Shown here: positions 11,065 through 44,049 of the stretch, one piece after another | Layout of the letters: the number at the start of each line of letters is the position of its first letter | How positions within the stretch are numbered: position 1 is the stretch's first letter | Assembly: GCA_963827755.1 (NCBI GenBank) | Contig: CAWHCQ010000034.1 | Coordinates: forward strand, 1 to 58,657 | DNA: 58,657 nt | Source: an uncultured Gammaproteobacteria bacterium | GTDB taxonomy: Bacteria; Pseudomonadota; Gammaproteobacteria; UBA9214 | Direction of reading: 5' to 3' | Notes under the pieces: generated by a model | What the model was told of the DNA's origin: nothing | The model's input: only the letters and a program-made list of their open reading frames with translations | The model's database searches: none | Position numbers and translations under genes: made by a program

Positions 11065-11144
11065 TCCCGGCTGGAAATATTCTGTACCCACCCCGGATTT
11101 CGCTCCCGCGCACCTGCACCCGGGCGACGTACCCTGTAAATCGT

Positions 11145-11210: not shown

Positions 11211-11236
11211 TTTTATCGAGTTGCGCCGCATCGATC

Positions 11237-11986: not shown

Positions 11987-12257
11987 GTGGTTTGTACCTG
12001 TGGCTGGATTTCGTTGGCGACAATGCGCAGCTGCCAGCTGGTCAGGGTTTCTGCAGCCGATTTGTCCATCGGGATCAATACCGGCATTAATAAATCTCCA
12101 AATGGCTTTTACGTATGTCGTATCATAGCGTAAAACGGCCACCGGATTAGCCTCCCGGCTTTCTGCAGACGACCTGACCGGGCCCTGTCCTGGCAGTATA
12201 CTTTTTACCCTGCCCCGCAGGCCCGGGGCGCTGGAACTACAAGAGGTTTTGACGGCT

Positions 12258-12449
12258 ATGGATCAGATGTCGACGTGGGAAATGCTGTTGCTGGGCGCCG
12301 TTGTCCTGATGGTGTTGATCTGGCTTGGGCCGGGGGTCAAGGCATCCCTGGAACAGAGCCGCAAGGCAGAGAAGAAAGACTGGGCAGGGGTACTGTTTCC
12401 TGTCGCGCTGGTCATATTGTTCGTTATTTTTCTCATCAGTATGGTGTAG
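12258..12449 (+). CDS. Small two-TM membrane protein
   Basis: AAGAGG RBS upstream; two hydrophobic segments flanking a charged linker; 4 nt before the ABC ATPase start. Confidence 0.75.
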   Translation: MDQMSTWEMLLLGAVVLMVLIWLGPGVKASLEQSRKAEKKDWAGVLFPVALVILFVIFLISMV

Positions 12450-12453
12450 CCGG

Positions 12454-14255: not shown

Positions 14256-15416
14256 TTAACCCTGTAAAACCAGTTCCCCGTCCCTGGCCGAGAGCACAAG
14301 CTTGCCGTCCAGCAGTGCCTGCAGCTGATCGCCGACCAGTTTCTTGCGCCAGCCCTGCATGAGGCCGGTATCCGTTTCACCGGCCACCAGTTTTTCGAGG
14401 TGTTTTCGCGTCGCCAGGACCGCCGGGTTGAGGGAGTTTTTTTCGCCGCTGATGCGCACAACTGCCATCATCACATCGACGAGGGCATCCTGCGAAGGTG
14501 ACAGGCGCTTGCTGAAATCCTTTTTGGGAAAGGGTTCGGGTTTATTCTTTTTGCCCGCGCTGACAAGCCCGAGCAGTTTTTCACCGCTATTCTTCAGAAT
14601 CTTCTCATTCAGGCCGCGTATCTTTCCGAGTGATGCCAGTGAATCCGGCTGGTGTCGTGCCAGTTCGACGAGGATATCGTCGCGCAACAGCCAGCCTTTC
14701 GGGATGTCTTTTTGCTGTGCGGCCTTTTCACGCCATTCAGCCAGCACCTGGAGGGTGGCAAGGCTGGCGCCCTTGAGGCGATTACCGCCCTTTACCTTGA
14801 GCCAGGCCCTGTCAGGGGCGTTCTGGTACAGGTCGGGGCGGGTGAGTTGCTCAAAATCCCCGCTTAACCATTCAAGCCTTCCCCGGTCGTTCAGCTTTTC
14901 CAGCAATTGCTGATAGATATCCACCAGGTAGATCACATCATCGGCGGCATACTGAATCTGGTCCTTTGACAAGCGGCCGCAACGACCAGTCAGCCCGGGT
15001 ATGTTTCTTGTCAAGACTGACGCCGAGGAGGTCATTGACAAGATTGCCGTAACCGATCTGGTCCGGGTAGCCCAGCAGCAGGGCAGCAATCTGGGTGTCA
15101 AAAACAGGGGCGGGCACAGCACCCCGAATATGGATAGAAGATTTCCATGTCCTGGCGTGCGGCATGCATCACCTTGGTAACGCGGGGATCGAAAAGTACT
15201 TCAAGAAGCGGTGACAGGTCATCCAGCGCCAGCGGGTCGATACAGGCAACGACTTCGGGTGTTGCGATCTGTATCAGGCAGAGTTTCGGATAGTAGGTTT
15301 TTTCTCTGAGGAATTCTGTGTCCAGTGCAATCCAGCTCGGCGTCTGAAATCTGTTCAGTAAACTGCTTGAGTGCATCCGGTGAATCGATGTACTGGATGT
15401 CAGCAGATGCACTCAC
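14256..15416 (-). CDS. rnd: Ribonuclease D (several frameshifts)
   Basis: IALDTEFLREKTYYPKLCLIQ, HAARQD, FDTQIAA, DWSLRPL, YAADDV, C-terminal HRDC region and GWR motif. Confidence 0.93.
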
Positions 15417-15430
15417 GATAGCAGGCGCAC

Positions 15431-15859
15431 TTAACCATCACCTTCTATCTCATCGACATCGACCTGGCCGGTCACACGACGGCGTATATGTGACCAGGAA
15501 ATTCCGATGGCAAGTATTCCGGAGAGTATCGCGAGGACGATATAGCTGATGGCCTCGACGCTGTCAGCAGGCACCAGGTCCCAGTCAATCAGCATCCATA
15601 GAATGGTGCCAAAGAAAGCGGCGGCCAGGATCAGGCCAAAGGCACCGAGTGACCGACCGGTTGCACGCAAAAATATTGTCCAGCCGATAATCACCAGAAT
15701 GCCTGCCAGGGCCATCAAGGGACTAAAATTTTGCAGGTTTTCACTAACCCAGTGGTAATACGATTTGCCAGACGGGTTATAGGTCGAGAACACCAGCACA
15801 ATTGCAGCCAGCAGGCGCAGAATAAATCCCGTCCAGGTCAAGCCCTTGTATGCAGCCAT
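15431..15859 (-). CDS. Conserved four-TM membrane protein (DUF6524-like)
   Basis: TYNPSGKSYYHW, RATGRSLG and C-terminal SWSHIRRRVTGQVDVDE motifs. Confidence 0.8.
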   Translation of the reverse strand: MAAYKGLTWTGFILRLLAAIVLVFSTYNPSGKSYYHWVSENLQNFSPLMALAGILVIIGWTIFLRATGRSLGAFGLILAAAFFGTILWMLIDWDLVPADSVEAISYIVLAILSGILAIGISWSHIRRRVTGQVDVDEIEGDG

Positions 15860-16095
15860 ATCATTTCCCCCGTGCGCCTCGATTGGGTGCGCATTCTATG
15901 CGTCGTTGACACGTCATAGCAAGTACAGCGCCACTCTGCTCGAGTATTGATTATTTTCCAAACACGGTAGAATGATCAATCGGCTGATGGCCCTTTACCC
16001 GGAGAGATCTGCACTGCCGGTATTTCTTTTGGCACAAGGCTCAGGTTATTTATTTGTTTTCAATGCATCCTCTTGTTTATATTGTTAATAGTCAT

Positions 16096-17485
16096 ATGAA
16101 AGTTGTCCTGATAAACCCCTATGAAATCGGCCGTCAGCCGTTCGGGCTGGCACAACCGGTTGCATGGCTGGAAAGGGAAGGTTGCCGCGTTGCCTGCCTG
16201 GATCTGTCGATACAGAAACTCGATCAGGCCGTGCTTGAAGATGCCGCCCTGGTTGCACTCTATGTGCCCATGCATACCGCGACCCGTATCGCGGCCGAGG
16301 CCATCCCTAAAATCAGGGCGATGTCACCCGGCGCGAGCCTGTGCGTATTCGGTTTGTATGCGCCCATGAATGCCGACCTCTTTGAATCGCTCGGTGTCAG
16401 TACCATCCTCGGGGGTGAAGTCGAACCCGGCATGGTGTCGCTGGTCAGACGCTTGCAAGCGGGCGGGCAGCACACACAGACCGAACCAAGGGTCAGCCTG
16501 GAGAAGATTGATTTTCTTGCACCCGATCGCTCGAAACTGCCGCCTCTCGAAAAGTATGCGCAGCTGATGATGCCGGATGGCAGCAGGCAAACCGTTGGTT
16601 TTGGCGAGACCACGCGCGGCTGCAAGTACCTCTGCCGGCATTGCCCGGTCGCCCCGGTTTACAACGGAACCTTTCGCGTCATACCGGAGAACATCGTGCT
16701 CGATGACATCCGCAGCCAGATCATGCAGGGCGCAACGCACATCTCCTTTGGTGATCCGGATTTCTTCAATGGCCCGGGTCACGCACTCAGGATCGTGCGC
16801 AAATTGCATACAGAGTTCCCGCAGATAACCTATGACGCAACCATAAAAATCGAGCATATCGTCAACTACCCGAATGAAATACGTGCACTCAGGCAGACCG
16901 GTTGCCTGTTCATTGTCTCGGCCGTTGAGTCGGTCGACGACCGCGTACTGGAGTACCTGGACAAGGGGCATACCCGCAACGACTTTATCCAGGCACTGGC
17001 ATTCCTGCGCGAAACCGGTATCGCCATGTCACCGACCTTTGTCGCCTTTAACCCCTGGTCGACCCTGGAGGGTTACCGTGACCTGTTGCGGCACATCTTT
17101 GATCTGCGCCTGGTTGAAAGCGTGGCGCCCGTACAGCTGGCCATCCGCCTGCTGATACCGCAAGGTTCATTCATTCTCGACCTCGACGGCCTGGACGAGG
17201 TGATCAGCCGAATTTGACCCGGTGACGCTGGGTTACCGCTGGAACAACCCGGACCCGCGGGTGGACAGGCTGCAGGAATCGGTCATGGCATGGGTTATGA
17301 AGGCAGAAGCCGAGAACACCTCACGCCAGAATATTTTCGAGGGTGTCTGGAAACTCGCCCACCAGCATGCGGGCCTGCCGGTACCGGTCTTGTCAGGGTA
17401 CGCGTCCGGTGAGCCGATACCCCGCCTGTCCGAGAACTGGTATTGCTGTGCCGAGCCGACCAGTGAACAGCTCGCATCATTCTGA
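16096..17485 (+). CDS. B12-binding radical SAM protein, CUAEP/CCAEP-tail family (Cys variant; frameshift near 17210)
   Basis: N-terminal YEIGRQPFGLA B12-binding region, CxxxCxxC (CKYLCRHC), FGDPDFFNGP, tail PRLSENWYCCAEP. Confidence 0.9.
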
Positions 17486-17521
17486 GCATGACAACACGGT
17501 ACAGGACCTGAGCGGCACCTG

Positions 17522-18416
17522 TTGAAAAGAATAATTTTCACTCCCGGCAAGAATATCAAGCCACCCGAAGAACAGCATAAGCAGCAATTACTGCGTTGCC
17601 TGCTCCATTCTGTCGGCAGGCTGGATGCCGATGTCGCACGCGAAATTGAAGCCACGGATGCCTTTACCCTGGTCCCGTGGAATTACACGTTCTACAACGA
17701 GTACCGTGATATCAACAGGGATATTCCATGGGTCGACAGGCTGCTTGAGATCGATACACCGGATTCTGCAGATATCTCGGCGGCACGCCCGCTGGCGTAC
17801 CGCTTTGCAAAATTCATGTACATGATCGGCGATATCATGCCCTGGCTGATCCCGCTGATCCCTGACAAGCGGGTGAAGATATCCATACAGGATACGGAAA
17901 GGTATTTTGCAAATCATGACAATATTGCCTGCCGGATACGCGAGTATCTCAAATCCGCGTTGCGCGAAGGCCTATGGCAATCAGGACAGGATACTGCTGA
18001 TCGGTCACAGCATGGGATCGATCATCGCCTATGACTCGCTATGGGAACTGGATCATCTGGAAGGCATTCACCAGTGTGTCGATTGCTTTCTGACGATCGG
18101 GAGTCCACTGGGCATGCATTACGTCCAGCGGCGATTCATCAACCATGAGAACCATCATCCTGATCCCTACCCGGGGAATATTCGCAAATGGATCAACGTG
18201 TCCGCGCGTGGTGACCTTGTCGCCCTGGACCCGGCGATCGCCAATGATTTTGACGACATGGTAAAAAAGCACTACATCGAATCAATCGAGGACCGGGCGA
18301 AGGGCGTTTATAACTTCTATCGTGATGAAAAGGGACTCAATGTGCACAAATCCTATGGCTACCTGGCGAACCCCGTGGTGGCACGGATCATAATTGACTG
18401 GTGGAAATCGGCATGA
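17522..18416 (+). CDS. Alpha/beta-hydrolase (lipase-like); frameshifted, start uncertain
   Basis: Nucleophile elbow IGHSMGS, TIGSPLG, GDLVA acid and NVHKSYGYL His motif. Confidence 0.75.
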
Positions 18417-27513: not shown

Positions 27514-27727
27514 CCGGGACCTGCAGACAGCTTGGACTATTCGTGGATCGGCTACCCGGGGCGAGATTCCTGTAGCCGATGTCATCCCCGGGCGAGTGAT
27601 TCGCTTTACATACAATCAGGAAATGTATTAAATACAACACCCCGGAAGGGGGTTTTTGCAAAAATCAAGTGGCCCACGGGCGTCGCGGTCAGCCGACAAT
27701 ACAACATTATAAAAGGGAGCAAGCTGA

Positions 27728-28378
27728 ATGAAGCAGATTAAAATCCTGACCAGTGCCATCACACTGGCTGTTCTTGCCTGTCTGGGAACGGCCTGTACGG
27801 AGGAGGCGGCACCTGTAAAACTCAAAGAGACGCTCTTGTGTGCAGGTAACGAGGGCGTCACGCCTTTCAAGGTGAACTGCACCTATTTTTATCTCGATGA
27901 ATACAATAACGAGATAGAGCCGAAGGACACCGTGTACTGGACGCTGGATATTGCCCTGGAAGGTATTGCACAACGTTTCTATTCCCAGAGCACAGGCAAC
28001 CGGTTCTTCACTGAAATTGACCGTCCGGGAGAATACACCCTCAGTGCGGCGAACAGCGGCAATAAAACCAGCATACTGGTATCGATCGTTGCGCCCGAAG
28101 ATTACTCTTCATCCCTGGTGAGACAGGTGCCTGTTACCATTGCTTCAAGAAAGCACGAGAAGCAGGTGCGGATACTGGAGGCCTCGCCCGGCTACGAGAT
28201 AAGCTCTGCGACAATCCAGGTCCATCCGAACAGTACCCGGGTAAGTTCCCGCGTAACTGTTTCCAGTGACCGCACGACAGCGAAACTCGTCGTTGAACTC
28301 CAGCCCAAGTCCGAGGCATTCAAGGTTGTGCGGGCCTGGTTTGCCGGTAACGTCGTCCTGACGGAGCGTAAAATCTGA
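27728..28378 (+). CDS. Hypothetical lipoprotein, beta-rich
   Basis: GGGAG RBS; signal with lipobox-like LGTAC; 216-aa intact ORF; no family recognised. Confidence 0.65.
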   Translation: MKQIKILTSAITLAVLACLGTACTEEAAPVKLKETLLCAGNEGVTPFKVNCTYFYLDEYNNEIEPKDTVYWTLDIALEGIAQRFYSQSTGNRFFTEIDRPGEYTLSAANSGNKTSILVSIVAPEDYSSSLVRQVPVTIASRKHEKQVRILEASPGYEISSATIQVHPNSTRVSSRVTVSSDRTTAKLVVELQPKSEAFKVVRAWFAGNVVLTERKI

Positions 28379-28793: not shown

Positions 28794-29312
28794 ATGTACA
28801 GCAGCAAGACGAAATGGCTCAACCGGATCCTGCTTGCAGGGGCAATGTTCTTCTCACTCAGCGCCTTGTCTGAAGGGGCGCTGCAGAGCCGGATGGAGGC
28901 GCTTGTGGTGACTACACAGGCTGATGGCAGGGAGACATTTGATATCGCGACATCAGTCGAGCCCGGCCAGGTGATTGAATACCGCACCGTCTATAGCAAC
29001 AGCGGCGACGCATCGATCAGCAATCTTGCCGTGGTTGGCCCCGTACCTGCCGGAACCCGCTACCTCGGCAAATCCGCCAGCAGCAGTGTGGCACACGTGT
29101 TCGAGGCGAGCATCGATGGCGGCAACAGCTGGCACAAAGAACCGCTGCTGCGCACGGTCACGCAGGCAGATGGCAGCAAGAAACAGGAAGTCGTCCCGCC
29201 GGAAGAATACAGCCATGTCCGCTGGAAGGCGGCCGAGGCGATTGCGCGCAACAGCCGCCAGGAATATCGCTACCGTGTGCTTGTCCTGCCAACAGAGGAT
29301 AACGCCAGGTAA
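28794..29312 (+). CDS. Small secreted single-domain DUF11-like protein
   Basis: AAGGAG RBS, signal peptide, VEPGQVIEYRTVYSNSG...PVPAGTRY...SIDGG...EEYSHVRW...EYRYRV. Confidence 0.85.
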   Translation: MYSSKTKWLNRILLAGAMFFSLSALSEGALQSRMEALVVTTQADGRETFDIATSVEPGQVIEYRTVYSNSGDASISNLAVVGPVPAGTRYLGKSASSSVAHVFEASIDGGNSWHKEPLLRTVTQADGSKKQEVVPPEEYSHVRWKAAEAIARNSRQEYRYRVLVLPTEDNAR

Positions 29313-29410
29313 GCAGGAGAACACTGGATACAACGGCAGGATCATGTGCAGCAGCAAAGCAATCAGGATGATTATTTTCGCTTTATGTATTGAAATCTGG
29401 AGATAGAACC

Positions 29411-32157
29411 ATGCAAGGAAATAGTAGTTACCGGAAGACCAGACAGCCGCATCGGACAATTGACCAGGTCTGTATTAACAGGCCTGTGCGCGGTATTGAT
29501 GCTGATGGTCATGACTTCAACCGCGGCGGATGCTGCGCCGGTGGCCGGTTCGGTCATTGGCAACCAGGCCAGTGCCACCTACCTCGACGGGTCCGGCCAG
29601 GCGCGGACCGCAACATCGAATCTCGTCGAAACAGTGGTCGCACAGGTGGGCGGTACCGATATCGAGTCAGACCTGAGTAAAACGGTATCCGTCGGCGGTA
29701 CAGTCAACTACCCGCATACAATCACCAACAGCGGCAACGGGGTGGATACCTTTGACCTTGCGGTTGTCGATGCAGACAGCGGAAATATCGTGCTTGGCAG
29801 CCTGGTCATCTACGCAGACGCCAACCAGGATGGCGTTCCGGATAATTTTTCGCCGATCACGGTAACACCGGGCATGAACCCCGGCGACAGCTACGGCATT
29901 ATCGTCGCCACGACTGTACCCGGCGGTGTAGTCGCCGGTGACAGTGAAACAATGACGGTCACGGCGACCAGCCAGTTCGACAACGGTGTCAGTGATTCCA
30001 ACACCGATACGGTGACCGTAACAGGCAATGCGATCATCGAGGTCACGAAGGCCATTAATGTGGCCAGTGGACCCTCGCCAAACGGCAACCCGGCTGATCT
30101 CAACGATCCCGTCACGGTAACCCTGACCTATACCAACCGCGGCATCGGTGCGGCTGTGGCCGTGGTTCTTACCGACAGCCTGCCGGCAGGAATGAGCTAC
30201 GTCGCAGGTTCCGGACTGTGGAGCGGTGCCGCCCTGGTCGATGCGACGGGCGCAAATGACCCGGCCGGTATTGATTACGATGGCGGTGACACCACGACGA
30301 ATGAAATCATTGCAACCATTGCTTCTGTACCGCAGGGCCAGTCCGGGACGGTCAGCTTCGATATCACCATCGACGCCGGCCTCGTACCGGGTGCCATCGG
30401 TAATATCGCGACCTATGCATACAACGATGGTAGTGGAGCAGTCGGGCCGGTCGATACCAATACGGGCAACTACACCGTGCTCGCCACTGTTGGCGTCGAT
30501 TTTACAGATAGCGGGTCGAATACGGATGATGACGGCGCTAACGACGATGTGCTGATCAGCGGACCGGTCGCACAGGGTTCGACGCTGTTGTTCGACAACG
30601 TCCTGGTCAACAACGGCAATGGCAGCGACACCTTTGATGTCGACCTGAGCGGGTCCAGCTTTCCGCCGGGAACCACCTTCCAGCTGTACCTCGGTGATGC
30701 CTCCGGCAACCCGGTAACACCGATGACCGATTCAAATGGCAATGGCAAACCCGATACCGGGCCGCTGGCCCCGGGTGCGACTTACCACGTGGTGGTGAAG
30801 GCAACCCTGCCGACTGACGCCTCGGGCGGACCCTTCAGCGTTACCGGTACCGCGACGTCGTCTGCCGATCCAGGCGTGACCAATACGCTCACCGACACCG
30901 TGAACGCGGTCGAGGACATGACCATGGACCTGACAAACGACCCGGCCAGTGTTGACGTCCGCCGGTACTGTCGGTACGGGTGCCGGACCGGAAGTCACTG
31001 CAATAACGACCGAGTCTGTTGATCCGGGAACGAGCGCAATCTTCACCCTGCTGCTTGAGAATGAAAGCGCGCTGAGCAGCGATACCTATGACCTGGATGC
31101 CAGTACCGACGGGAGTTTTGCCGCGGTAAGCCTGCCGCCCGGCTGGTCGGTGATATTCCGTGATGCAGGCAACAATGTCATTAACAGCCTGACTGTCCCG
31201 GCAAATACCATCTCCACGATAACCGCCGAGATCAGTGTGCCGGCCAACGCAGCACCTTCAACCGGTACCGGTATCTATTTCCGCGCAGCCTCGAGCACCA
31301 GTGGTGCCAGTGATGTCCTGCATGATGCGGTCACCGTGAATACCATCCATGACCTCGCCATCGCCTCGAGCAGCACCGGCCAGGTGTTCCCGGGTGGCAG
31401 CGTCGAATACCCGTTCACCATGACCAATAACGGTAACGTGGTCGAAACGGCAGCCAGCCTTTCCGCTGTCAACGGTAATGGTCTCTGGGTGAGCACGCCG
31501 CAGGTCTACCATGACCGGAACGGCAACGGGGTGGTCGACGCGGGTGAGCCTGTCGTGGCAGACCTGTCAGCCGTCCTCGCCGATGGCGGGGCCGCGGGCG
31601 GTGCCAGCTCCGATCTTGACCCGGGCGAGAGCGTGAATCTCATCGTGCGGGTTGAGGCGCCTGCCAGTGCCAATGGTGGTGACAGCAACGACACGACGGT
31701 CACCGTTACCCTGGCAACGGACAGTGACACGGGTAACAACAGCCTGACAGAAAGCAGCACGGTAGTCAGCGGGGACATAAACGTCGCCAAATCACAGGGC
31801 CTGGACGTGAACTGTAATGGTGTACTGGGCGACGCTGGTGATTCGGCAGCCTTTACAACAGGCCAGATCAATTCAAGCGCTGCTGTGCCGGGTGTCTGCA
31901 TCCTCTACCAGGTCACGGCAACCAATACCGGCACATCACCGGTCAGCAGCCTGGTCGTTACGGATACCACGCCCGCCTTTACGACCTATGGATGTGACAC
32001 CGTGTCTCCACAGGTCGCGAACAATTGTGTGGCTACCGGCACGGGCGTTGTAACAGCCCCGGCACTCGGTGCCACGGGCGCCATCAAGGACACGATCGGG
32101 CCGCTGGCACCGGCCGCATCATCGGTGCTCACCTTTGGCGTCAAGATCAACCCGTAG
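29411..32157 (+). CDS. Secreted multi-Ig/DUF11 repeat protein of about 900 aa, putative fibre shaft subunit (frameshifts near 29450 and 30955)
   Basis: Signal ending AADA; mature N-terminus APVAGSVIGNQASATY; repeated N.GN..DTFDL Ig units, DxNxNG loops, one complete and one C-terminal truncated DUF11 domain. Confidence 0.85.
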
Positions 32158-32163
32158 GGAACA

Positions 32164-32198
32164 GGAAATACCGGGGGGAATCCCCCCGGTACATTTCC
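32164..32198 (+). terminator. Strong intergenic hairpin after the shaft-subunit gene (terminator or mRNA-stabilising stem)
   Basis: ACCGGGGGG-AAT-CCCCCCGGT stem extended by GGAAAT/ATTTCC; no clean U-tract. Confidence 0.6.
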
Positions 32199-32330
32199 AC
32201 AACTGAATCTTCGTTCCGGAAAAACGGGAATTTTCAGGCAGGCGTTGCATGAACAAGCCGCGTGAATGACGCCGATGCAGCAGCCACGAGAATTTCCATA
32301 TATAAGGTATACACAGGAAAACGCACGACA

Positions 32331-35300
32331 ATGCCGAGCAAGGATGAAAAGCCGGTCACCGCTCCACTCAAGGCATTGAGATACCTTCTCTCGGGCGCAC
32401 ATCCTGCTGCTCTCGACTCCTTCGCAGGCGCGGCACAGGCAGCACCGGCTGCCGGCACCATCATCAGCAACCAGTCCGAGGCCAGTTACCACAACGACGT
32501 CGTCGGCATCGATGAGACAGTCTATTCAAATACCACCGAGCTCGTTGTTGCAGCCGTGGAAGGCGTCTCTCTTGTTGCCAACCTGACACGCACGGTCATG
32601 GCCGGTGACTCACTGAAACTTCCACATCGCCTGACCAACACCGGCAACACGACGACAGGCTATATTCTCAACACCAGCAACCTCGGTGGTAATGACTTCG
32701 ATCTGCTCAATATCACCATGGTGCATGACGTCAACGGCAACGGCATCGATGATCCCGGTGAACCGCAGATCGCACAGGGCGGTACGGTGACACTCGCAGC
32801 CACGGCCTTTCTCGACCTGGTGCTCGTTGGTGATGTGCCCGCTGGCGCCAGCCCGGGACAGAGCAGCATGCTGATGACGGAGGCAGTCTCGCAGAGCGCC
32901 GTGACAAGCGCGGCAGTCATCGACACCATTACCATCCAGTTAGCCCCGGACCCTGCGCTGTCCCTGCTGGCAGACAAGGGCACGGCCCTCCCGGGAGATG
33001 TGGTGGAATTCACCCTGACGGCCGTCAACACCGGTGCAGGGACCTGCCGGGCCGATCGATGTGCGTGTCGATAACGTGAGTACAACGCTGCTTGTTTTGC
33101 GCGACCCGATACCGCCGAACACGACATTCCTCGGCGTAACCAACAGCGGCATTGCCCAGGCCCTGTATCATGTTCTCGGCGATGCGCTGCACGATTACCA
33201 GAGTACCCCGCCGGTCGACCTGGCCAGCGTGGATGCCGTTGCATTTGGCTATGCCGATGCAGCACCCGGCTTCAATCAACAGGCGGGTTTCAATGTAACC
33301 ACCAACGCCAATGCCGGGGGAATCATCGCCAACCAGGCACAGCTGTATTACATGAATTCCCCGGCCAGCGTGATCGATTCCAACCCGGTCGTTGTCAGCC
33401 TGCCTGCAGCTGTCGCCGAAATCGGCTATTTTACCGACCCGGGCATGACAAACACGGCCGTTGTCTCGAGTGCGGGTAATCCACTGCACCTCGGTATGGA
33501 TGCCAGCGACTGCAATACCGATGCGGCTGTCATCGAGCAATACACGGTAACACTGACCACCACGCTGTCATCCGACCTGGAACCCGGCTTTGTCATCGTC
33601 GAGACCGGTGCAAACACGGGACTGTTTGCACTCGGCAATATACCGACGCGTCTCTGGCCTGCCTTCCCCAGCGTGTCCGGCAATAATATTCTTGAAGTCG
33701 CCACTGATGATGTCGCGACGGCAACTGTCAACTGCGGTGGCGTGTCACTGAGCACTGTAATCCTGATCGATCCGGCCGGCGTGGTGTTTGACTCGGCCAC
33801 CAACCAGCCGCTGGCGGGCGCGACTGTCACGCTGACGGTATCGATGCCGGTGGTAATGACTTTACACCCGTGGTGCGGGATGCGGGCGGTAACCCGGTCC
33901 CCAACACGGTTGTAACCGGTGCAGACGGGCGCTACGAATTTCCCCTCGTCGCCGCCAGTGATTACCGTCTTGACGTGATTGCACCGGCCAGTCACAGCTT
34001 CCCGTCAACCCGGCCAGCCGCCTCGTTCCCGCCCGGGCGCAACATCGACCCGGCCGGCTCATACGGCGGTACCTTTACGGTGTCGGTACTTTCGGGCCCG
34101 GTGTTTATCGACCTGCCACTCGACCCGGGAACCACGCAGCCCGGCCTGTTTGTCGACAAGACAGCCTCGAGAACGGTTGCCGGGGTTGGTGAAAGCATTC
34201 TCTACACGGTGAAAATCTCGAACGGCACCGGCCTGACGCTGACCAATACACGCCTTGTCGATACGCTGCCGGCCGGGTTTGCCTACCAGCGCGGCACTTC
34301 GCGCCTGGATGCCCTGCGGATCGGCGACCCGGACGGTGCCCCGGGAAGACAACTCGTATTCCAGCTCGGTACACTGGCTCCTGCAGCCGAACATATCCTG
34401 CATTACCGGGTACAGGTACGCACCGGTGCACTGCGTGGCGACGGTATCAACAGCGCACAGGTCAGCAGCGACCAGGCAACTTCCAACATCGCCAAGGCGA
34501 AGGTGCGCATTGCCGATGACGTATTTCGCGACGAGGCACTGATCCTCGGCAAGATCTTCATCGATTGCAACCGCGACCGTCTCCAGGGGGCGGAGGAACC
34601 CGGCATCCCGGGAGTGCGCATCTATCTTGACGATGGAACCTTCGTCGTTTCCGACGTCGAGGGCAAATACAGTTTTGTAGGTATTTCACCGCGCACGCAC
34701 GCCCTCAAGGTCGACGCAACCACGCTGCCGGCCGGTGCGGAGATGATCACGCTCGGCAACCGCAATGCAGGCGACCCGCTCAGCCTGTTCGTTGACCTGA
34801 AGAAGGGTGAACTGCATCGCGCCGATTTTGCGGAAGGTTCCTGTACACCGGCCATCGTGAAGCAGGTCAGGCAACGCCGCCTGCAGGGTGAGGTGCTGGT
34901 GGCCGAGGTCGATCAGCAGATGAGCCAGGAACTGCGCGCCGATGGCGAACGCCCCCGGGCAGATCCGCGTTCACGGCCGGCCAGCGGCGTACGCGATGCC
35001 GCCGGGAATATTGTTGATTTCGTACCGGTGTTTACCGGGACACCGCCCGATCCAGGCCTTTCCAACCTGCCGAAGCCCCCGGTGCGCAAGGCAGCCACCG
35101 TCAAGCTGGAATCCATACTGCCCGGTGTTGATCCCGGACTCGGTTTTATCGGCCTGCGCGACGGCGACACCGTCGCAAGCCAGCAGATCTCCATCCAGGT
35201 CAAGGGTGCGGCCGGCACCCGCCTGCCGCTGCTGGTGAACGACGAAGTGATCCCGGAGAGCCGTGTCGGGCAGAAGGCGGTCATGTCGAACCGTTCCGTC

Positions 35301-38189
35301 GGTGCCTGGGAATATGTCGCCGTCAAGCTGCAACCGGGTGAGAACCGGCTTGAAGTCCGCCAGCTGGATCCGTTCGGCAACATGCGTGGCAGCCACGGCA
35401 TTACTATCATTGCCCCCGGCAACCTGGGCAAACTGTCGCTTTCCGTTCCCGGCAACGGCACACCGGCGGACGGGCATACCCCTGCGCCGATCGTGGTGCA
35501 GCTGCAGGATGAAAACGATGTTCGGGTGACCGCGCGCACGCCGATCACGCTGGAGACCAGCGAGGGCCGCTGGGATGTCGATGACCTGGATCCGCTTGAA
35601 CCCGGCGTACAGGCCTTTATCGAGGGCGGCGAGGCCATCTTCGATTTGTTGCCCCCGCAGCAACCGGGTGACGCGCAGGTACGCGTCAGCAGCGGCGTGC
35701 TTGAATCGATGGTCAACGTGAGTTTCCTGCCGGACCTGCGGCCGCTGATTGCCGTTGGCGTGATCGAGGGCGCCATCGACTTCAGCCGACTCGATGAAGA
35801 TGACCTGGCGCCGGCAACCGAACAGGACAGCTTCGAGGAACAAATTCGCGAGCTGCAATTCGGTGATGGCGACAGGCTGCGCGGGGGCGTACGCGGATCG
35901 ATGTTTCTCAAGGGCAAGGTCAAGGGTGATTTCCTGTTGACCCTGTCCTACGATTCCGACAAGGATCTCAAAGACCGCCTGTTCCGCGATATTCAGCCGG
36001 ACGAGTTTTACCCGGTGTACGGGGACTCTGCTATCAAGGGCTTCGATGCACAGTCAACCAGCCGCCTGTATGTACGCCTCGACAAGGGCAAGTCCTATAC
36101 GCTCTATGGTGACTACACCACACAGTCGGACAGCGAGGCGCTGAAGCTGGGTAATTACAGCCGCAGTCTCACCGGCCTGCGTGGCCATTATGAAACCGGG
36201 CGAGCTTCCATCAACTATTTTTCCGCCTACGATGATAGCCGCCAGCGCGTCATCGAGATACCGGGGAAGGGAATATCCGGACCTTACAGCATCGGTGCCA
36301 GCGAAATTGTCCGCAACAGCGAAAAAGTCGAAATCCTGACCCGCGACCGCAACCAGCCGGCACTGATCATCGAAACCAGGGCGCAAACCCGGTTTGCGGA
36401 CTACACCATCAACGCAATCGATGGCACGTTGCTGTTCCGCCGCCCTGTTTCCAGTGTCGATGCCAATCTGAACCCGGTAAGTATCCGGGTTGCCTTTGAA
36501 GTCGATGAAGGAGGAGAGGACTTCTGGATCTATGGCTTCAACGGCCAGCTGCACCTGACTGGCAATATCGATGTCGGCGCCTCCTTTGTGCGCGACGAGG
36601 ATCCCGGCAACAGGTATGAACTTTACAGTACCAATCTGTCGGTGAAGGTCGGGGAGCAGGGGAGATTGCTTGCTGAAATCGCACAATCCCGGCGTGAGCT
36701 CGGCAAGAGAGGCACCGCGAAACGGATTGAATACCGCCATGGCGGGAAGCGTCTGGAGGCGCGGGTATATGCCGCTGACACGGACAAGGCCTTCGACAAC
36801 CCGACCGCCTCGGTCACGCCCGGCCGGCGCGAGGCCGGTGCGCGCGCAATCGTCAGGATCGATGATCATTCGCGGCTCTCCACCGAGGTGCTGTTTACCG
36901 AAGACCGGGAGACCGGCGGGATCCGGCGCGGCGCAGAGATCTATCTCGACCGGGACCTGCCCTTTAACCTGCGCGCGGAGGCCGGCCTGCGCCATGCAAA
37001 GGAAACAACGGCCGCCGCATTACCCGCCAGTGAGGGCACGACACCGAGGGAAACCAACAGTATCCGTGGCAAGCTCGGTTGGCAGCCCGGGTTTCTTCCC
37101 CAGGCTAATGTGTCAGTCGAGTATGAACAGGATATCTCGGACAGTGCCCTGAAACAGGCCGCAGTCGCCGGTGAGTATCAACTGACAGACCGGGGGCGCC
37201 TCTACCTTCGCCATGAGTTCATCAACAGCCTGAGCGGAATCTATGGACTGAACGGGGTCAGCGACAACAGCAACAGCACGGTGCTGGGCCTCGATTACGA
37301 TTACATGGAGGATGGCCAGTTGTTCAACGAATACCGGCTGCGCGATGCCGTCAGCGGCCGCGAGGCCGAGGCGTCCATCGGTCTGCGCAACCTCTGGACC
37401 CTTGCCGATGGTCTGCGCATCCAGACCGGATTCGAGCGCATCCACCCCCTCGTCGGTGATACAGCAGACGAGGCGACAGCCGTGACGGGCGCCATCGAGT
37501 ACACGGCCAATCCACTCTGGAAAGGCACGGCACGGCTTGAATTGCGCCGCGCTTCCACCACAGAGAATCTATTGAATACATTAGGTTACGCCAGAAAGCT
37601 GGACCGGGACTGGACAGCACTGGCGAAAAACACCCTGACTCTTGAGCGTGCCCGTGACAGTGATGACCTGCATACCCGGGAGCGTATTCAACTGGGACTG
37701 GCCTACCGGGATACGGATACGAATCTCTGGCAGGTGCTGACGCGCTACGAGTACAAGTACGATAAGGACGAGGCCATCGATGACCGGCGGCGTGTTCACA
37801 TGTGGTCCGGTCATGCCAACTACCATCCGAGTCGCCCGCTGACCCTGAGTGGCCGCTATGCAGGCAAGTGGGTGGAAGAAGAGGCCACCGACTTTAATAA
37901 CGATTTCATGGCGCATTTGCTCAGCGCCCGCCTGATGTATGACTTGAGCGAACGCTGGGACCTCGGCCTGATAGCCAGCACCCTGTTTATGGATGGCTTC
38001 GACTCACACCAGTACGGGCTGGGCGTGGAGGCCGGCTACCAGCTGACCTATAACCTGTGGCTGTCGGCAGGCTATAACTTCTTCGGGTTTAAAGACGAAG
38101 ACCTGGACGAGGAAGACGCAAGCAACCCGGGTGCATACGCACGCATGCGCCTCAAGTTCGATGAAGACATGTTCAACTGGCTGCAATAG
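32331..38189 (+). CDS. Very large (about 1950 aa) DUF11/SdrD-B repeat protein with C-terminal outer-membrane beta-barrel (frameshifts near 33045 and 33850)
   Basis: Mature N-terminus APAAGTIISNQSEASY; DUF11 units; GKIFIDCNRD...GIPGVRIYL SdrD-B-like unit; Big-1-like PADG unit; YPVYGDS motif; long run of amphipathic beta strands ending LWLSAGYN...GAYARMRLKFDE. Confidence 0.85.
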
Positions 38190-38205
38190 GAAAGAACGGG
38201 AAACG

Positions 38206-39212
38206 ATGATGAAATACAAATACAGGTCATTCATTGCCGCAGCAATCATGCTGGCAGGCAGTGGTTGTGCAGTTAGTACGGATATCGTCAAGCAGTCGCA
38301 TGCGCCACGTGGCATCCATGAACAATCGGCGCGCATCACGGATGAAGCGATTGAAAACGATATTGCGTATATCGAGGGCCTGCGCCAGCGGCTTGCCGTC
38401 CTGAACACCTCGGGAACGCCCATCGAGAGCTATCATGTCTGCAAGGCGCAGGCATGGCTGGACATGGCCTTCGATGAATACACGGATAATGACCGCAGCG
38501 CGGTTGTTGCCGCCGCCCTGCAGCAGGCCGAAACCATTATCACCGGACTGGAACAGGGCGGCGCGATCAGCAAGACAACAGCGGTCATCGAAACCAGCCA
38601 GTACCTGCGCGAAGACCTGTGGGCCTCGGCAGAGGCGGCAAAAAACGGCGCATACTTCGAGTGTACGGCCTGCGATGTTGCCCGCCTCGAGGTGCAGCTG
38701 GTCTGGATCGGCCATGAAATCAACGAGCTTGGCTGGCGCCATGCCGAATCCGAAATCATGGCCGCCGAACGCATCGAGCGCAGCCTCAGGGAAAACACGG
38801 CACGTTGCCGGGGCATCGAGGAAACCCGGCTGGCACTGCCTGACCGCCTGCATTTTGCCCACGACAGCAGCCGCATCTGCGCCGCAGTCGGCCGCCTTGC
38901 TCGAGCGTATTGCAGCCTACATGCAGACCGACGAAACCACCCGGCTCGTGCTGAAAGGATTTGCGGACGAAACCGGCAGCGCTGATTATAATCTGGCGCT
39001 GTCGCAACGCCGCGCCGTTGCCGCGCGCGAGTTCCTGCTGGAAAAGGGTATTGCACCGCAGCGGCTGACACTGCGCGCCCTGGGTGAACTGCAACCCGTG
39101 AAGCACGGACGCAGCAGGGAGGCGCTTGCCTATAACCGCCGCGTGGAGCTGCTGCTCATCAGGGCGACACCACATTGACGTGGAAAACCTGTACCTGGAT
39201 CTTCAGCCATAG
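38206..39212 (+). CDS. OmpA-C (peptidoglycan-binding) lipoprotein (frameshifts near 38880 and 39165; end approximate)
   Basis: Lipobox LAGSGC; helical N-domain KAQAWLD...LEVQLVWIGHE..GWRHA; LHFAHDSS, GFAD, YNLALSQRRA, NRRVE. Confidence 0.88.
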
Positions 39213-39217
39213 GGACC

Positions 39218-42052
39218 ATGATGACAAGCCGCAAACACACTGCAGCTGTGACGACGCCTTCAGCGCGAGGCGTGCCGAATACATCGCCGAATAAGGCAGG
39301 CGGGCGTGCTGTTGCTGCTTGCCGCGGGCCTGCTTGCGGCGCCCGTGCAGGTGATACGTGCCGAGGGCTCCGCACAGACGGGCCTGAACCAGCCCCTGTA
39401 TGAATACGGGGCGACACATTCCCTGCTCAGCCCGATCAACCGGCCGCTGTACGTCGATATCAGCTCCGCGGGCGCAGGTGATCAATTTCTCCCTTTGCGG
39501 CAACGCAGACTCCGACCAGTTACGCGTCGAGTTGCGCAATCCCGTGGGGACAATCGTGTTGAACCAGACCCTGTCGACGGCGACGACCGGGGTCGGCAGG
39601 GTAACGTGTACCAACCCCTTCAGCGCGGCGCTGAACAATCCGTTGAAATACGTCACCACGACCAGCGGCGCCTACGAGGTCCGCCTGTACAACAACTCCA
39701 GCACCGTGTTCAGGCGTTTCGATATCACGGTCACGCCGAACACCGCTACCTTGCCGAATCCCACGATAAGGGCCGGCCGCCTGTGGTCCTACAGCTGGGC
39801 CTTCAATGCCGGCAGCTACGTGAAGACGGCCTCCACCGATGCCGATTATTTCTCCCTGACACCGGGCAGCGAACCGGGAACCAACTTTATCTGGCGGCTC
39901 GATCTGAACAAGTTCGCCGGCTATGTCTACGAGATCGCGGCCAACGGTATTGGTGTCGATGCACCCAACTCGGGCCTCAGCGTGCCGACGTCCGGCAACA
40001 ACCTCACTCCGGATTTCCCCGTCTACCTGGGCTACCCGGTCGTTGCCGGCCCGTTGCCGGCGGTGGCGCCATCGACTTCAAACTTCTATTTCGTCGACAA
40101 CGCCGGCCAGGATTCAGGCATCTCCCCGGGGGCGACCACCGGCGTCCAGGACAGCGGCACGTTCTATTTCGATACCAACGGCACCCTCAACTACGCCATC
40201 GTCATCGATACCAACCAGGACAACATCTACAGCGCCGGCGACGTGCTCCTGCTGGGCCCGGCAACGTCCGGTACGAATGCCGTGGATTGGGACGGCCGCG
40301 ACAACAACGGCGCCGTGTTGCCGGTCGGTACCTACAATGCCCGTCTGCAGGTGCGTTCGGGTGAATACCACTTTGTCGCCTCGGACGCCGAGACCAGTGG
40401 CGGCGACGAACCGGGGCTGACGATTTACCGTGCCCTGCCTGGCGGCGGCACCGTGAACACGCTGGTCTACTGGGACGACCTGACCGTGCTCGGCGGCACG
40501 ACCACCCTGCCGACCGGCCAGATGGCCGGACGTCATACCTGGGGTGATTTCACCGGCACCAGTTTCGGCAACCAGCGCTATATCGATACCTATGTCTTCG
40601 GCGGCGTGGCAACGACCACGGACAGTTCGGTCAACATAACCACGGTCGACACGCAGATCACGGGCCGTGTCTGGTCAGATGCCAATCATAACGGCGTCCT
40701 CGACGCGGGCGAGAACGGTATTGCCGGGGTCACGGTGGTGCTGCACAACACGGTTGCCGGCAGTTGCCAGGGCGTGCAGACCGATACCAGCGGCCACTAC
40801 ACCTTCATCGGGATCGCCGATGGCAGTTATCAAATTATCGAGGCGGCAGGGGAGAGCGTACCGGTACCCGGGACCTGCCCGCCCCCGGCCAGCGATCCGC
40901 CTGGCTACTTCTCGGTCACCGCGAACAGCCACGCCGTTGTGGCGACCGGGAATCGATATTTCAGGACGCGATTTCGGCGATTTCAACGGCAGCCGTTACG
41001 AAGGACGTGTCTTCGAGGACAACGGTACTGGCGGTGCGGTGGCCCATGACGGCAGCATGACGGGGGCCGAGAAAGGCCTGCCCGGCATCGTGGTTCAGGC
41101 AAGCAACGGCGCGACACTGGACAGCACGACGACGAATGCAGACGGTGACTTCGTCCTCTGGATCGCTGCTGCGGCCAGCGGTGCGAATGTCGACATCATT
41201 GCAGCCGCTCCGGACAGCAACCTGGCTGTCAGCAAGGCGAATGGCGGAGCAGGGGATGCTGCCGCGCCAACCGCCTACCACCAGATCAGCGTCACGCCTG
41301 TTTCCGGACAGGTCTATAGCGGACTCGCCTTCGGCCAGGCGCGCAAACCGGCCCTTGCACCGGACCATAGCCGTTCCGCTACCGCCGGCAGTACGCTGTT
41401 TTATCCGCACACTTTCACCGCCTACAGCAGCGGCACGGTGAGCTTCAGCACGCCGGACCTCGTTGCAACACCGAATGTTCCCGGCTGGAATGCCGTGCTC
41501 TATAACGACAGCAACTGCAATGGCACGCTGGAGCAGGGTGAGCCTGCGCACACGACGCCCGTGCCGATGGATGCTGACGTCGCCAACCAGGTCTGCCTGA
41601 TCGCGCAGGTGTTTGTCCCGGCGAGCGCGCCAGCCAACGCCCAATACGCGGTGACCGTCGCCGCGACCTTCAGTTATGCGGCGACCGGCGCGATGACTGT
41701 GCGCCAGCGCACCGACCTGACCACGGTCGGCGACTCGAGCCTTGTGCTGGTCAAGGTGGTCGACAAGCCCACGGCACAGCCCGGCGAGTTGCTGACCTAT
41801 ACCATTACCTACACCAACACAGGCAGTGAAGCATTGAGCACGCTCGTTATCGACGACGCCACGCCGGGCTTTACGACGTTCAACAGTGCCAGCTGCCTGC
41901 TGCCGCTGCCGGCCAACCTGACGGGCTGCTCTGCAAGTACCCAGCCTGCGCCCGGTGCGACCGGTCCCATTCGGTGGACCTTCAACCCGGGCGACACCCT
42001 GCAGTCGGGCGCCAGCGGCCAGGTACAATTCCTGGTAACCGTCGACAATTGA
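39218..42052 (+). CDS. Secreted DUF11/SdrD-B/FlgD-Ig protein, putative tip adhesin (frameshifts near 39300, 39480, 40950)
   Basis: Signal LLLLAAGLLAAPVQVIRA; unique N-terminal domain; WDGRDNNGAVLPVGTY FlgD-Ig motif; ITGRVWSDANHNG SdrD-B unit; C-terminal truncated DUF11 ending VQFLVTVDN. Confidence 0.82.
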
Positions 42053-43104: not shown

Positions 43105-44049
43105 ATGAAAATACCATTTCCAAACGTCCGGCTGACAGGCCGCGCAGCCGTCCTGTTTCTCTGCATCGCCGTCAACAGCAGCAGCGCACGAGCCGACACC
43201 TTTATCCAGCCACCTGACGATATTGACCTCATAGGCAGCCTGCAATACGTCAAGGCCCACCAGAACGAAACCCTGCTGGATATTGCACGCAATAATGATA
43301 TCGGCCAGGAAGAGATCCTGATTGCGAACCGGGACGTCGACCGCTGGTTGCCGGTCAATAATCCCGTCGTCAGGCTGCCCAAGCGTTACGTGTTACCGAA
43401 TGCTGCGCGTACCGGGCTGGTGCTGAACCTCCCGGAAATGCGCCTCTATTACTTTTACCGGTCGAAATACAACAATACCCCGCAGGTCATCACCCATCCC
43501 GTCAGCGTGGGCAGAATGGACTGGGAAACCCCGCTGGGAAAGACCAGCATAGCCTCCAAGCAACGAGACCCCTCCTGGCGGCCGCCGCAGTCACTCAAGG
43601 ACGAAGCCATCGCGGAAGGCGATGATCCCCTGCCCGACGTCGTCCCTCCCGGGCCCGATAATCCGCTGGGAGGCTATGCCATGCGTCTGGCTGTTCCGGG
43701 TTACCTGTTACACAGCACCAACAAGCCGTATGGCGTCGGTATGCGCGTCACCCACGGCTGCCTGCGCATGTATCCCGAGGATATCGAACAACTGTTCGAT
43801 GATGTCCCCGTTGGCACGCCTGTAAATATCGTCAATCAGCCGGTGAAACTGGGCTGGCTTGCAGATACCCTGTATATAGAGATCCATCCGGCGCTGGAAG
43901 AAAATCTGCAAAAACCCGGTACTGATTACCAAACGATATTGAACCTGGTAGCCGGGTTCACGGCCGACAGGCCCGTTACCCTCAATACCGCGGCACTGCG
44001 CATGGCCATCGAGAAGCAGGATGGAATACCGGTGGCAATTTCGGAATAA
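43105..44049 (+). CDS. L,D-transpeptidase, ErfK/YbiS/YcfS/YnhG family
   Basis: Signal peptide; LysM-like ETLLDIAR; NLPEMRLYY, GPDNPLG, HSTN...THGCLRM catalytic motif; C-terminal YIEIH domain. Confidence 0.93.
   Translation: MKIPFPNVRLTGRAAVLFLCIAVNSSSARADTFIQPPDDIDLIGSLQYVKAHQNETLLDIARNNDIGQEEILIANRDVDRWLPVNNPVVRLPKRYVLPNAARTGLVLNLPEMRLYYFYRSKYNNTPQVITHPVSVGRMDWETPLGKTSIASKQRDPSWRPPQSLKDEAIAEGDDPLPDVVPPGPDNPLGGYAMRLAVPGYLLHSTNKPYGVGMRVTHGCLRMYPEDIEQLFDDVPVGTPVNIVNQPVKLGWLADTLYIEIHPALEENLQKPGTDYQTILNLVAGFTADRPVTLNTAALRMAIEKQDGIPVAISE

Follow-up and report, generated by a model that had tools for sequence, protein, structure and literature searches.

Can a fibre on the surface of a Gram-negative bacterium be put together from subunits that share one domain between two chains and lock themselves at the joint? 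The question is raised by five plus-strand genes, here termed A-B-C-D-E, that lie between positions 28794 and 42052 of contig CAWHCQ010000034.1 (assembly GCA_963827755.1), from an uncultured gammaproteobacterium of the lineage UBA9214; the whole 58,657-nucleotide contig was analysed and is referred to as the window. The predicted products are 172 amino acids (A), about 900 (B), about 1950 (C), an OmpA-like lipoprotein (D) and about 950 amino acids (E). B and E end in a domain of the DUF11 or CLIPPER family, an immunoglobulin (Ig)-like fold, that stops before its last two strands, and the mature N-termini of B and C carry sequence homologous to the missing part. The reading favoured here, to which a probability of about 0.62 is attached, is that the operon would produce an outer-membrane-anchored fibre in which one CLIPPER domain is split between neighbouring subunits, with the joint probably locked by a covalent bond.

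A domain probably split between two proteins

The N-terminal segment that would supply the missing strands is called the donor, and the truncated C-terminal domain the acceptor. The genes and elements on which the argument turns are the following.

29460-32157, plus strand: gene B, candidate shaft subunit (donor and acceptor); two frames in the window, with a 1-nt insertion near 30961
29535-29645, plus strand: B donor, mature residues 26-62, the two strands that the acceptor is without; Asn35 codon at 29562-29564
30027-30482, plus strand: internal complete CLIPPER-type domain of B; K197 at 30048, D239 at 30174, N315 at 30402
31768-32154, plus strand: B acceptor, a truncated C-terminal CLIPPER domain; K281 codon at 31789, D339 codon at 31963, stop codon directly after
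32331-38189, plus strand: gene C, candidate base or anchor, with signal peptide, donor, Ig-like domains and a very large C-terminal beta-barrel
32442-32555, plus strand: C donor segment; Asn codon at 32469-32471
34149-34487, plus strand: internal complete DUF11 domain of C; K at 34158, D at 34260, N at 34449
39179-42052, plus strand: gene E, candidate tip, with an N-terminal head module, Ig-like domains and an acceptor, no donor; four frames
41732-42049, plus strand: E acceptor, a truncated C-terminal CLIPPER domain; K363 codon at 41753, D397 codon at 41855

The truncation is apparent from standard family models. The Pfam DUF11 model has 114 positions, of which the terminal domains align with 8-83 in B and 2-84 in E (2-84 again in an intact E orthologue), whereas the internal domains of B and C extend to position 107 (3-107 in C). 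Against a cut-off of 24.6 bits the Pfam scores are 38.7 for the internal domain of C, 30.0 for the terminal domain of E, 24.5 (just under) for that of B and 17.8 for the internal domain of B. TIGR01451 (cut-off 24) recognizes B at 38.3 bits, its C-terminal half at 30.0, C at 36.4 and E at 40.7, and TIGR04226 reaches 23.5 bits on the internal domain of B, below its cut-off of 30. Searches of PDB sequences with the two pieces of B or with a B profile return nothing at E <= 1 or 0.1. An initial annotation of this DNA had described the internal domains of B and C as complete, with a Lys/Asp/Asn triad (now placed at K197/D239/N315 in B and at K97/D131/N194 of the third piece of C), and the terminal domains of B and E as keeping Lys and Asp but stopping before the Asn-bearing strand. 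Both descriptions hold, and its motifs and coordinates, including the two donor Asn codons, are as it gave them.

The point of truncation can be compared on both sides with a hidden Markov model (HMM) of 147 positions, built from the complete internal domain of 62 B homologues and run on 29 operon proteins from the window and six relatives. Seven C-terminal domains (those of B and E of the window, of B and E of the same-genus genome G012, and of three small subunits) stop at HMM positions 109-111, at most two residues from the end of the protein; the B acceptor covers 15-111 and ends at residue 401 of the 402 in the second B piece, and the E acceptor covers 12-111 and ends at residue 460 of 461. 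Ten N-terminal matches begin at positions 108-117, and one at 88. These are individually weak (i-Evalue 7.5e-4 to 0.8); the B donor and the C donor both match 113-146, the latter at an i-Evalue of 0.49. No N-terminal match to 112-146 occurs in the seven E-type proteins scanned. As the acceptors stop at 109-111 and the N-termini start there, both sides are cut at one and the same place in the profile, and in sequence the acceptor ends where the donor starts, an exact complement. By the ordinary standard of a complete fold the terminal domains of B and E fall short, their last two strands being missing; read from the sequence, that absence is the finding itself.

The donor is about 37 residues long and comprises two strands. 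The initial annotation had seen in the N-termini of B and C the single missing strand: the homology to the missing part is borne out, and it extends over two strands instead of one. The spacing of the donor residues N, A (+2), Y (+6) and D (+8) repeats that of N315, A317, Y321 and D323 in the internal domain. G30, I33, N35, Q36, A39 and D43 of the donor are invariant in the 62 aligned B homologues, and acceptor residues K281 and D339 are at least 90% conserved. B is cut by a type I signal peptidase site (A-x-A), with the donor following at once, unlike lipoprotein precursors. Mean conservation of the donor along B is 0.738, third among 837 overlapping 37-residue segments; the best non-overlapping segment elsewhere reaches 0.73, so that donor conservation is high but not unique, and B-on-B addition is not argued from it.

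What the conserved residues may do is suggested by a solved member of the family. The CLIPPER/DUF11 domain of PDB entry 9IFR has a Lys715/Asp748/Asn806 triad and a CnaA-like fold, a type of fold whose bond runs from the first strand to the penultimate one (PMC12617251). The operon domains belong to the same family and carry the triad in the same places, on the first strand, in a D-x-x-P turn and on the penultimate strand; the distance from Lys to Asp is 34 residues in the E acceptor (K363, D397) and 33 in the solved domain (PMC12617251). The triad of the initial annotation was thus right as to its residues, while the fold that it named (CnaB-like) and the strand to which it assigned the Asn (the last) are replaced by a CnaA-like fold and the penultimate strand. 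In 9IFR the triad lies in one chain and the bond is internal, whereas in the operon two strands would come from another protein; the CLIPPER survey, in the portion consulted, deals with intramolecular bonds only (PMC12617251).

Donors and acceptors in other genomes

If the domain is split for assembly, donors and acceptors should be distributed among the operon proteins in a regular way. Among 8000 scored candidates, 683 B homologues are found at E <= 1e-5, and 115 of the 120 listed have the donor motif G-x-x-[ILVMT]-x-N-x-[AS] within the first 90 residues, directly after the A-x-A signal-peptide cut in B. The five exceptions are one fragment, two long mis-called starts, one truncated start and one variant. 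Inspected by eye, the B homologues end in the same final strand in all cases save the broken piece of the window. C homologues number 2319 at E <= 1e-5, likewise among 8000 scored candidates; the strict motif is present in 99 of the 120 listed, and the rest are mostly fragments or variants. Public annotations of the B and C homologues read DUF11, SdrD-like or hypothetical only. Of 1.84 billion cluster representatives, 3240 are related to the barrel region of C at E <= 0.001, 1385 of them at E <= 1e-30; species genomes contribute at least 597 relatives, some of them from cultured Acinetobacter, Moraxella, Psychrobacter and Massilia, and the operon is carried by strains of Pseudoduganella and Undibacterium as well.

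Operon architecture was examined in 80 loci from other species. These belong to six phyla in all: Pseudomonadota (with Acinetobacter, Moraxella, Psychrobacter, Massilia, Polaromonas and Gallionella among them), and also Verrucomicrobiota, Acidobacteriota, Gemmatimonadota, Geobacteraceae/Desulfuromonas and Abditibacteriaceae. A first census by regular expression was noisy, with spurious GC-rich open reading frames (ORFs) and motifs beyond the search window, and HMM calls replace it; by regular expression 40 of 54 full-length barrel proteins have a donor, and several others show variant motifs by eye. By HMM, a terminal acceptor is found on the barrel protein in none of the 80 loci. One donor-plus-acceptor protein is present in 38 loci, always upstream of C, and a long acceptor-only protein in 36. 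Thirty of the latter proteins lie downstream of C, and none of those 30 has a donor match. All three parts are present in 18 of the 80 loci. The division of labour in the initial annotation (C with a donor and a barrel, B with donor and acceptor, E with an acceptor only) is recovered by HMM calls in the window and recurs among the 80 loci, which is also the outcome of its suggestion that the pattern be followed through homologous operons.

The residues of the putative triad follow the same division. In 96 terminal acceptor-type domains from the 80 loci, the Lys column is K in 52 of the 53 that align there, and the Asp column is D in 82 and L in 14. The 14 Leu-type domains we take to be A-like proteins, as the A consensus reads T-L-P-I-P at that place. 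Long proteins without a barrel have N in the donor Asn column in 40 of 40 cases and barrel proteins in 26 of 27, and 68 of 70 donor-HMM matches are at N-termini.

Architectures other than that of the window also occur. The genus contains a second operon type, 30% identical (L012 in G002, L013 in G023, L016 in G015 and L018 in G024), with two small donor-plus-acceptor subunits of 350-410 amino acids that end right after a V-x-I-N strand, together with a donor-bearing barrel protein and an acceptor-only protein. In Alkanindiges, Acinetobacter and Moraxella loci L054, L071, L073 and L080 a long acceptor-only gene stands upstream of A-B-C and not downstream, so that gene order is not fixed; in some of these an OmpA-like gene follows C. 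Barrel arrangements vary as well (L063, L064, L076 and L084; P0263, P0316, P0320 and P0334): a shorter barrel protein of about 1100-1150 amino acids may lie behind a separate protein of 2600-2800, or the barrel may be followed by some 400-500 further residues. The separate, shorter barrel proteins indicate that the system exists in fused and split forms.

A model of the proposed joint

Whether donor and acceptor would fit together was examined in a two-chain model, with an alignment of 62 rows for each chain. One chain was the B acceptor (residues 266-402 of the second B piece), the other the B donor followed by the first domain (residues 26-195). The interface score (ipSAE, interaction prediction score from aligned errors) is 0.87, 0.85 and 0.87 in three runs, compared with 0.05 for the best of three controls. 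The mark set for the tool is reached by 58 of 80 solved complexes and by 2 of 110 mismatched pairs, figures that are a rough guide here since the alignments were our own. The runs share at least 93% of their contacts, and the predicted local distance difference test (pLDDT) value of the partner is 91.

In the model, the donor is inserted into the B acceptor, as the initial annotation had anticipated for a complex of this kind, and the outcome that would have spoken against it, a donor folded into its own first domain, is not seen. Donor residues 33-46 and 51-63 contact the acceptor (at residues 274-283, 303-315, 330-340 and 394-402) and not the first domain of the donor chain. Donor residues 37-42 pair with acceptor residues 333-338, the strand leading to D339, and residues 51-58 with 279-283, the strand that bears K281. 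That the contact joins two chains is argued from the proteins that have only one half of the joint: C has a donor without an acceptor (0 of 80 loci), and downstream E-type proteins have an acceptor without a donor (0 of 30). The absence of a linker between donor and first domain would point the same way. Taken with the profiles, the donor/acceptor interpretation is supported, and every computational test able to refute it came out in its favour.

Proposed assembly, length and lock of the fibre

In the mechanism proposed for the operon, E, B and C would be exported by Sec. The donor of B would complete the last domain of E, the donor of a further B or of C would complete the last domain of B, and the C donor would end the chain, which the C barrel would hold in the outer membrane. 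Each completed domain would bring the donor Asn beside the acceptor Lys and Asp, and a Lys-Asn isopeptide bond would then form spontaneously, with no enzyme, as in complete CLIPPER domains. E, with an acceptor only, would be the distal end; B, with both halves of the joint, a repeatable or connecting unit; and C, with a donor only and a barrel, the terminator and anchor. Because the triad is the same as in isopeptide-forming CLIPPER domains, the joint is probably locked covalently without an enzyme. Strand complementation between chains appears very likely, and where it occurs a covalent lock can be expected with similar assurance; whether a fibre contains more than one B is, in our estimate, an even matter. 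It is important to emphasize that the data show the complement in sequence, its conservation over several phyla, a confident model of the complex and the fold of the barrel; the covalent bond, the number of B units, export via the C barrel and the roles of A and D are what we infer from these data.

Several points weigh against the split-domain fibre. The window copies of B, C, D and E are frameshifted, a matter taken up below, and the bond and the fibre are predictions from sequence or model. The model places the conserved Lys, Asp and Asn at the interface of the two chains and gives no Lys-Asn distance. It may merely rebuild a known fold from two pieces; and, since each of its alignments lists one and the same set of proteins in an identical row order, contacts between chains and within a chain are not separable in it. 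A donor-HMM match is found in 32 of 52 full-length barrel proteins, the others being divergent or starting beyond the search window, and by the loose regular expression 6 of 41 downstream ORFs would have a donor. The barrel is unlike any usher among the fold matches listed, and its use as an export pore is a guess. Two of the C homologues (P0147 and P0154) have Ser in place of the donor Asn, as does the barrel protein of locus L092 (6524-12637), while B of L092 keeps Lys and Asp; the lock is accordingly not universal.

The three Ser-bearing barrel proteins may reflect lineages in which the anchor joint is non-covalent, or else a sequencing error. A test for covariation between loss of the donor Asn and the acceptor residues had the single case of L092, with Lys and Asp kept, and says nothing either way.

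The same joint could also serve a structure of fixed length. One E, one B and one C would then be stitched into a long adhesin, the B donor fitting only E and the C donor only B, with no homopolymer shaft. Such an arrangement is in keeping with the single B gene of each operon of the window's type and with the approximately 1150 Ig-like residues that C alone carries before its barrel; moreover, close cousins of a true partner also pass the complex tool, so that the pass of B with B does not prove B-B specificity. Set against this are the high confidence with which the B donor fits the B acceptor in the model, the absence of any sequence feature that would block B-on-B addition, and the paralogous operons of the same genus, whose two small donor-plus-acceptor subunits recall pili with major and minor pilins. 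An adhesin of one E, one B and one C is considered unlikely, although it survives better than the other alternatives.

A second possibility is that strands are exchanged between subunits but that the joint is non-covalent, with Lys, Asp and Asn having a structural part only. The stability of chaperone-usher and type V pili needs no covalent links, three barrel proteins have Ser in place of the donor Asn, and in BsaA of Clostridium perfringens, an unrelated fibre protein discussed below, oligomers of the N35A mutant remain stable in sodium dodecyl sulfate (SDS) until heated to 95 C. The triad, however, is kept at the positions of the solved CLIPPER isopeptide (K in 52 of 53, D in all 82 domains not of the Leu type, and N in 66 of 67), and the one acceptor-like protein that should not be trapped by a donor, the product of gene A, is without the Asp and, by eye, the Lys. 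A purely structural triad is for these reasons improbable.

Frameshifts in the window copy

The window has B in two frames, C in three, D in three and E in four, and frameshifted copies of four genes do count against a functional fibre. The extent of the damage can be judged from locus L011 of the same-genus genome G012, which keeps the gene order of the window, with every gene intact, at a nucleotide identity of 81% (B at 5128-7902, 89%-class; C at 8075-13927, 1951 amino acids; E at 14957-17809). Compared with L011, the window has at least eight single-base insertions or deletions: near 30961 in B, 33043 and 33833 in C, 38886 and 39168 in D, and 39254, 39475 and 40948 in E. Seven of the eight are insertions in the window. 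In addition, the signal-peptide region of C (32400-32421) is garbled in the alignment with L011. For folds and alignments the window's own pieces were used, except that work on whole genes drew on the intact orthologue.

It could be held that these shifts are real and that the operon is a decayed pseudogene cluster in the source organism, eight single-nucleotide changes inside B, C, D and E against an intact orthologue being what decay might leave. An unrelated lipoprotein-like gene upstream (27616-28378) is, however, frameshifted too; the changes are nearly all single-base insertions; and between the shifts the frames show no further interruption, with 71-88% identity to the L011 orthologue. 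Near-identical contigs from other public sediment-metagenome runs also restore the frame, by a net loss of one base at 30956-30969 in X2 and by an added A behind 33836 in X1 (two contigs), X2 and X4; three contigs that span about 33043 carry one gap each, at a place that the comparison leaves unlisted. These contigs are used for the indels just named and for nothing else. The shifts are very probably assembly errors, and decay of the operon is improbable. Broken frames recur about every 1.5-2 kb over 27616-28378 and 29460-42052, and other ORFs of the contig may be split likewise, so that its gene calls need caution.

Other possible roles for the N-terminus

The split-domain reading assigns the B and C N-termini to the joint. 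They could instead be sorting or export signals, addressed to the barrel or to another machine, with the shortened C-terminal domain a stable variant and no strand exchange at all. The motif does follow the signal-peptide cut without a gap, in one of the best-conserved stretches of B, and gene A, truncated at the same point, has a confident stand-alone model (pLDDT 87). A signal of this sort would not be expected to match the missing strands position for position, as the N-terminus does, or to dock on the acceptor and not on its own domain in the model; and a general export signal is hard to reconcile with E, whose export goes without the motif. This explanation is very improbable. That the N-terminus of B merely closes the last domain of the same B molecule is scarcely credible: the complex model is blind to the difference and monomeric self-complemented FimA has reportedly been described, but C and the downstream E-type proteins both need a partner chain, no linker separates the donor, with its modelled contacts up to residue 63, from the first domain, several domains (one or two in subunits of 350-460 amino acids) lie between the first domain and the acceptor, and ring closure looks sterically hard.

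The barrel and the accessory genes

The remaining features of the operon bear on how a split-domain fibre would be exported, guarded and anchored.

36066-38186, plus strand: beta-barrel region of C, about 700 amino acids, from an AlphaFold2 model
28794-29312, plus strand: gene A, a secreted single beta-sandwich of 172 amino acids, CLIPPER-like, ending at the acceptor truncation point
38206-39215, plus strand: gene D, for a peptidoglycan-binding lipoprotein of OmpA type; split over three frames by indels near 38886 and 39168

Pfam recognizes DUF11, SdrD_B and CarboxypepD_reg in C, whose C-terminal part is modelled as a very large beta-barrel without a curated family. The AlphaFold2 model of the barrel has a pLDDT of 76.0 and a predicted template modelling (pTM) score of 0.66, with about 32 regular strands over model residues 270-829 and shorter strands before them. 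Pfam and NCBIfam give no family above cut-off for it (OMP_b-brl is sub-threshold, at 20.4 against 28.7). Foldseek finds only generic large barrels (SlpA, LptD, TonB-dependent receptors, MtrB) at a template modelling (TM) score of about 0.2, with no usher among the matches listed, and the fold searches with the barrel and with gene A suggest no known machine. A protein atlas labels such barrels 'outer membrane protein family protein' or 'hypothetical', with no family, which serves as a lead and not as evidence.

Two observations set gene A apart, both beyond the initial annotation, as are the frameshifts of B, C, D and E: it too ends at the truncation point, and it appears to be without the residues of a lock. 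TIGR01451 reaches 23.5 bits on its product against a cut-off of 24. Aligned by hhalign with the internal domain of B (probability 90.7%, E 1.2e-6), the match ends at residue 168 of 172, so that A stops at the strand just before the donor-equivalent strands. AlphaFold2 predicts a stand-alone beta-sandwich (pLDDT 87.4, residues 30-165 above 95), for which the PDB has no fold match at E <= 0.001. The gene is conserved directly upstream of B, with homologues collected from 35 loci; at the Asp position A has Leu or Gly, and no first-strand Lys is seen by eye. From its sequence, A is a third acceptor-like protein, without the Asp and by eye without the Lys. Because it has the shape of an acceptor without these residues, one may guess that it is a periplasmic keeper of donor strands that is not trapped by them.

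The product of gene D scores 57.5 bits against Pfam OmpA (62.8 for the intact orthologue), and a D-like gene lies downstream of C in 10 of 80 loci; D would presumably tie the structure to peptidoglycan. Enzymes of the L,D-transpeptidase (YkuD) family attach proteins to peptidoglycan, and one such gene (YkuD, 78.5 bits) is located at 43105-44049, about 1 kb downstream of E. The L011 contig stops at the aldolase-like gene, short of the place where the L,D-transpeptidase would be expected. The first ~370 residues of E form a head module. Its structural neighbours (searched with residues 48-420 of the E encoded at 14957-17809 of L011; TM score by query 0.7-0.8) are in unnamed surface proteins of Bacteroidota, Cyanobacteriota and Actinomycetota, some with type IX secretion tails or phage-tail-like trimerisation regions; this likeness to surface-protein modules is a lead only.

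The genes that flank the operon (a hydrolase, the aldolase-like gene and the L,D-transpeptidase) are unrelated, so that the initial coordinates of 28794-42052 bound the unit well. The source is a metagenome-assembled genome of 52 contigs, 91.8% complete, that contains one such operon only; it has four DUF11 matches, all inside the operon.

Relation to known systems

The initial annotation had called the system sortase-independent and distinct from chaperone-usher and type V pili, and searches bear this out. PF04203 sortase is not found in the 91.8%-complete source genome, and B and E have no LPXTG-type sorting signal, their chains ending at the truncated domain. Searched with Pfam, the ten pieces of the operon have no PapD-like chaperone and no PapC/FimD-type usher; FimA-type, TasA-type and autotransporter matches are likewise absent from the operon, as is a SipW peptidase.

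Chaperone-usher pili are similar in that the tip comes first and a terminator last, and in that the operon encodes an outer-membrane barrel. In the type 1, P and Csu/CupE systems the barrel is not of this kind, that of the operon being much larger and fused to the terminating subunit; the subunits are single domains, as opposed to multi-domain rods of 870-2000 amino acids, and the operon joint is probably covalent. In the operon, donor-strand complementation would be by an N-terminal extension, as the model (0.87 against 0.05) and the profile complement suggest; in type V pili the donors are expected at the C-terminus. Sortase pili are like the proposed fibre in that Ig-like (CnaA/CnaB) subunits are linked into a chain by covalent isopeptide bonds and that tip, shaft and base are different proteins, but they need an enzyme and a sorting signal, whereas the operon bond would be autocatalytic and would lie inside a reconstituted domain. 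C resembles classical autotransporters (type Va, with a 12-strand barrel) only in the order of passenger and barrel, its own barrel having about 32 or more strands over some 700 residues in the model.

Engineered split pairs are a further point of reference. In isopeptag/pilin-C, SpyTag/SpyCatcher and SnoopTag/SnoopCatcher, a split strand with one of the reactive residues and a domain with the other and the catalytic acid religate spontaneously, the pairs having been cut in the laboratory from complete Gram-positive domains. Those splits are laboratory-made, and the one proposed here would be natural and used for assembly.

The closest parallels in principle come from two natural systems. In BsaA of Clostridium perfringens, donor-strand exchange is accompanied by an Asn35-Lys74 bond with Glu56 as the catalytic residue, and mutants lose oligomers. 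As in the operon, an N-terminal donor enters the next subunit, the donor supplies the Asn and the acceptor the Lys and an acid, and there is no sortase; unlike it, BsaA has a TasA-like fold instead of CLIPPER and Glu instead of Asp, belongs to a Gram-positive host, is accompanied by a SipW peptidase and genes for type IV pili, and lacks both an outer-membrane barrel and distinct proteins for tip and base. The archaeal thread Saci_0406 of Sulfolobus has its N-terminal alpha-amine (Asp24) linked to Asn57 of subunit n+2 (PMC9715654). Here, too, an N-terminal tail acts as donor strand with a proposed inter-subunit isopeptide and no known enzyme in the sections of the report consulted, and the threads are thin and very stable (PMC9715654). 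They differ from the operon proposal in using the alpha-amine and not a Lys side chain and in reaching n+2 and not the neighbour; the host is an archaeon with a single membrane and, as far as those sections go, the protein has no Pfam domain (PMC9715654).

Tafi surfaced through DUF1102 only; its donor-strand model is without covalent bonds, and it is not related. A paper on Litorilinea concerns a single giant DUF11 protein, and a 2026 review of bacterial surfaces, in the parts consulted, mentions isopeptides for sortase pili only. In open-access papers and bioRxiv preprints, supplements aside, nothing was found that describes the operon, the barrel family or a split DUF11 domain.

Significance

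The system appears to be undescribed and widespread. Its joining principle is not unprecedented: it would be a third, independent instance after BsaA and the archaeal threads, both of which are unrelated to the operon in fold, host envelope and machinery. In its most far-reaching form, which is offered tentatively and is somewhat less likely than not, the proposal would be of a new class of Gram-negative fibre in at least six phyla, in which a split isopeptide domain polymerises and locks without chaperone, usher, sortase or ATPase, the barrel is both export pore and anchor, and A is a dead acceptor that keeps the donors.

If the split-domain fibre is real, it would represent a widespread and overlooked Gram-negative route to covalently linked surface fibres, to stand beside the chaperone-usher, type IV, type V and curli systems. 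It would account for a very large barrel family that is without a curated model, and would provide many natural, probably orthogonal pairs of peptide and domain for ligation of the SpyTag kind. It would also mean at least three independent origins of strand exchange followed by a lock, namely in the TasA family, the archaeal threads and the system of this operon.

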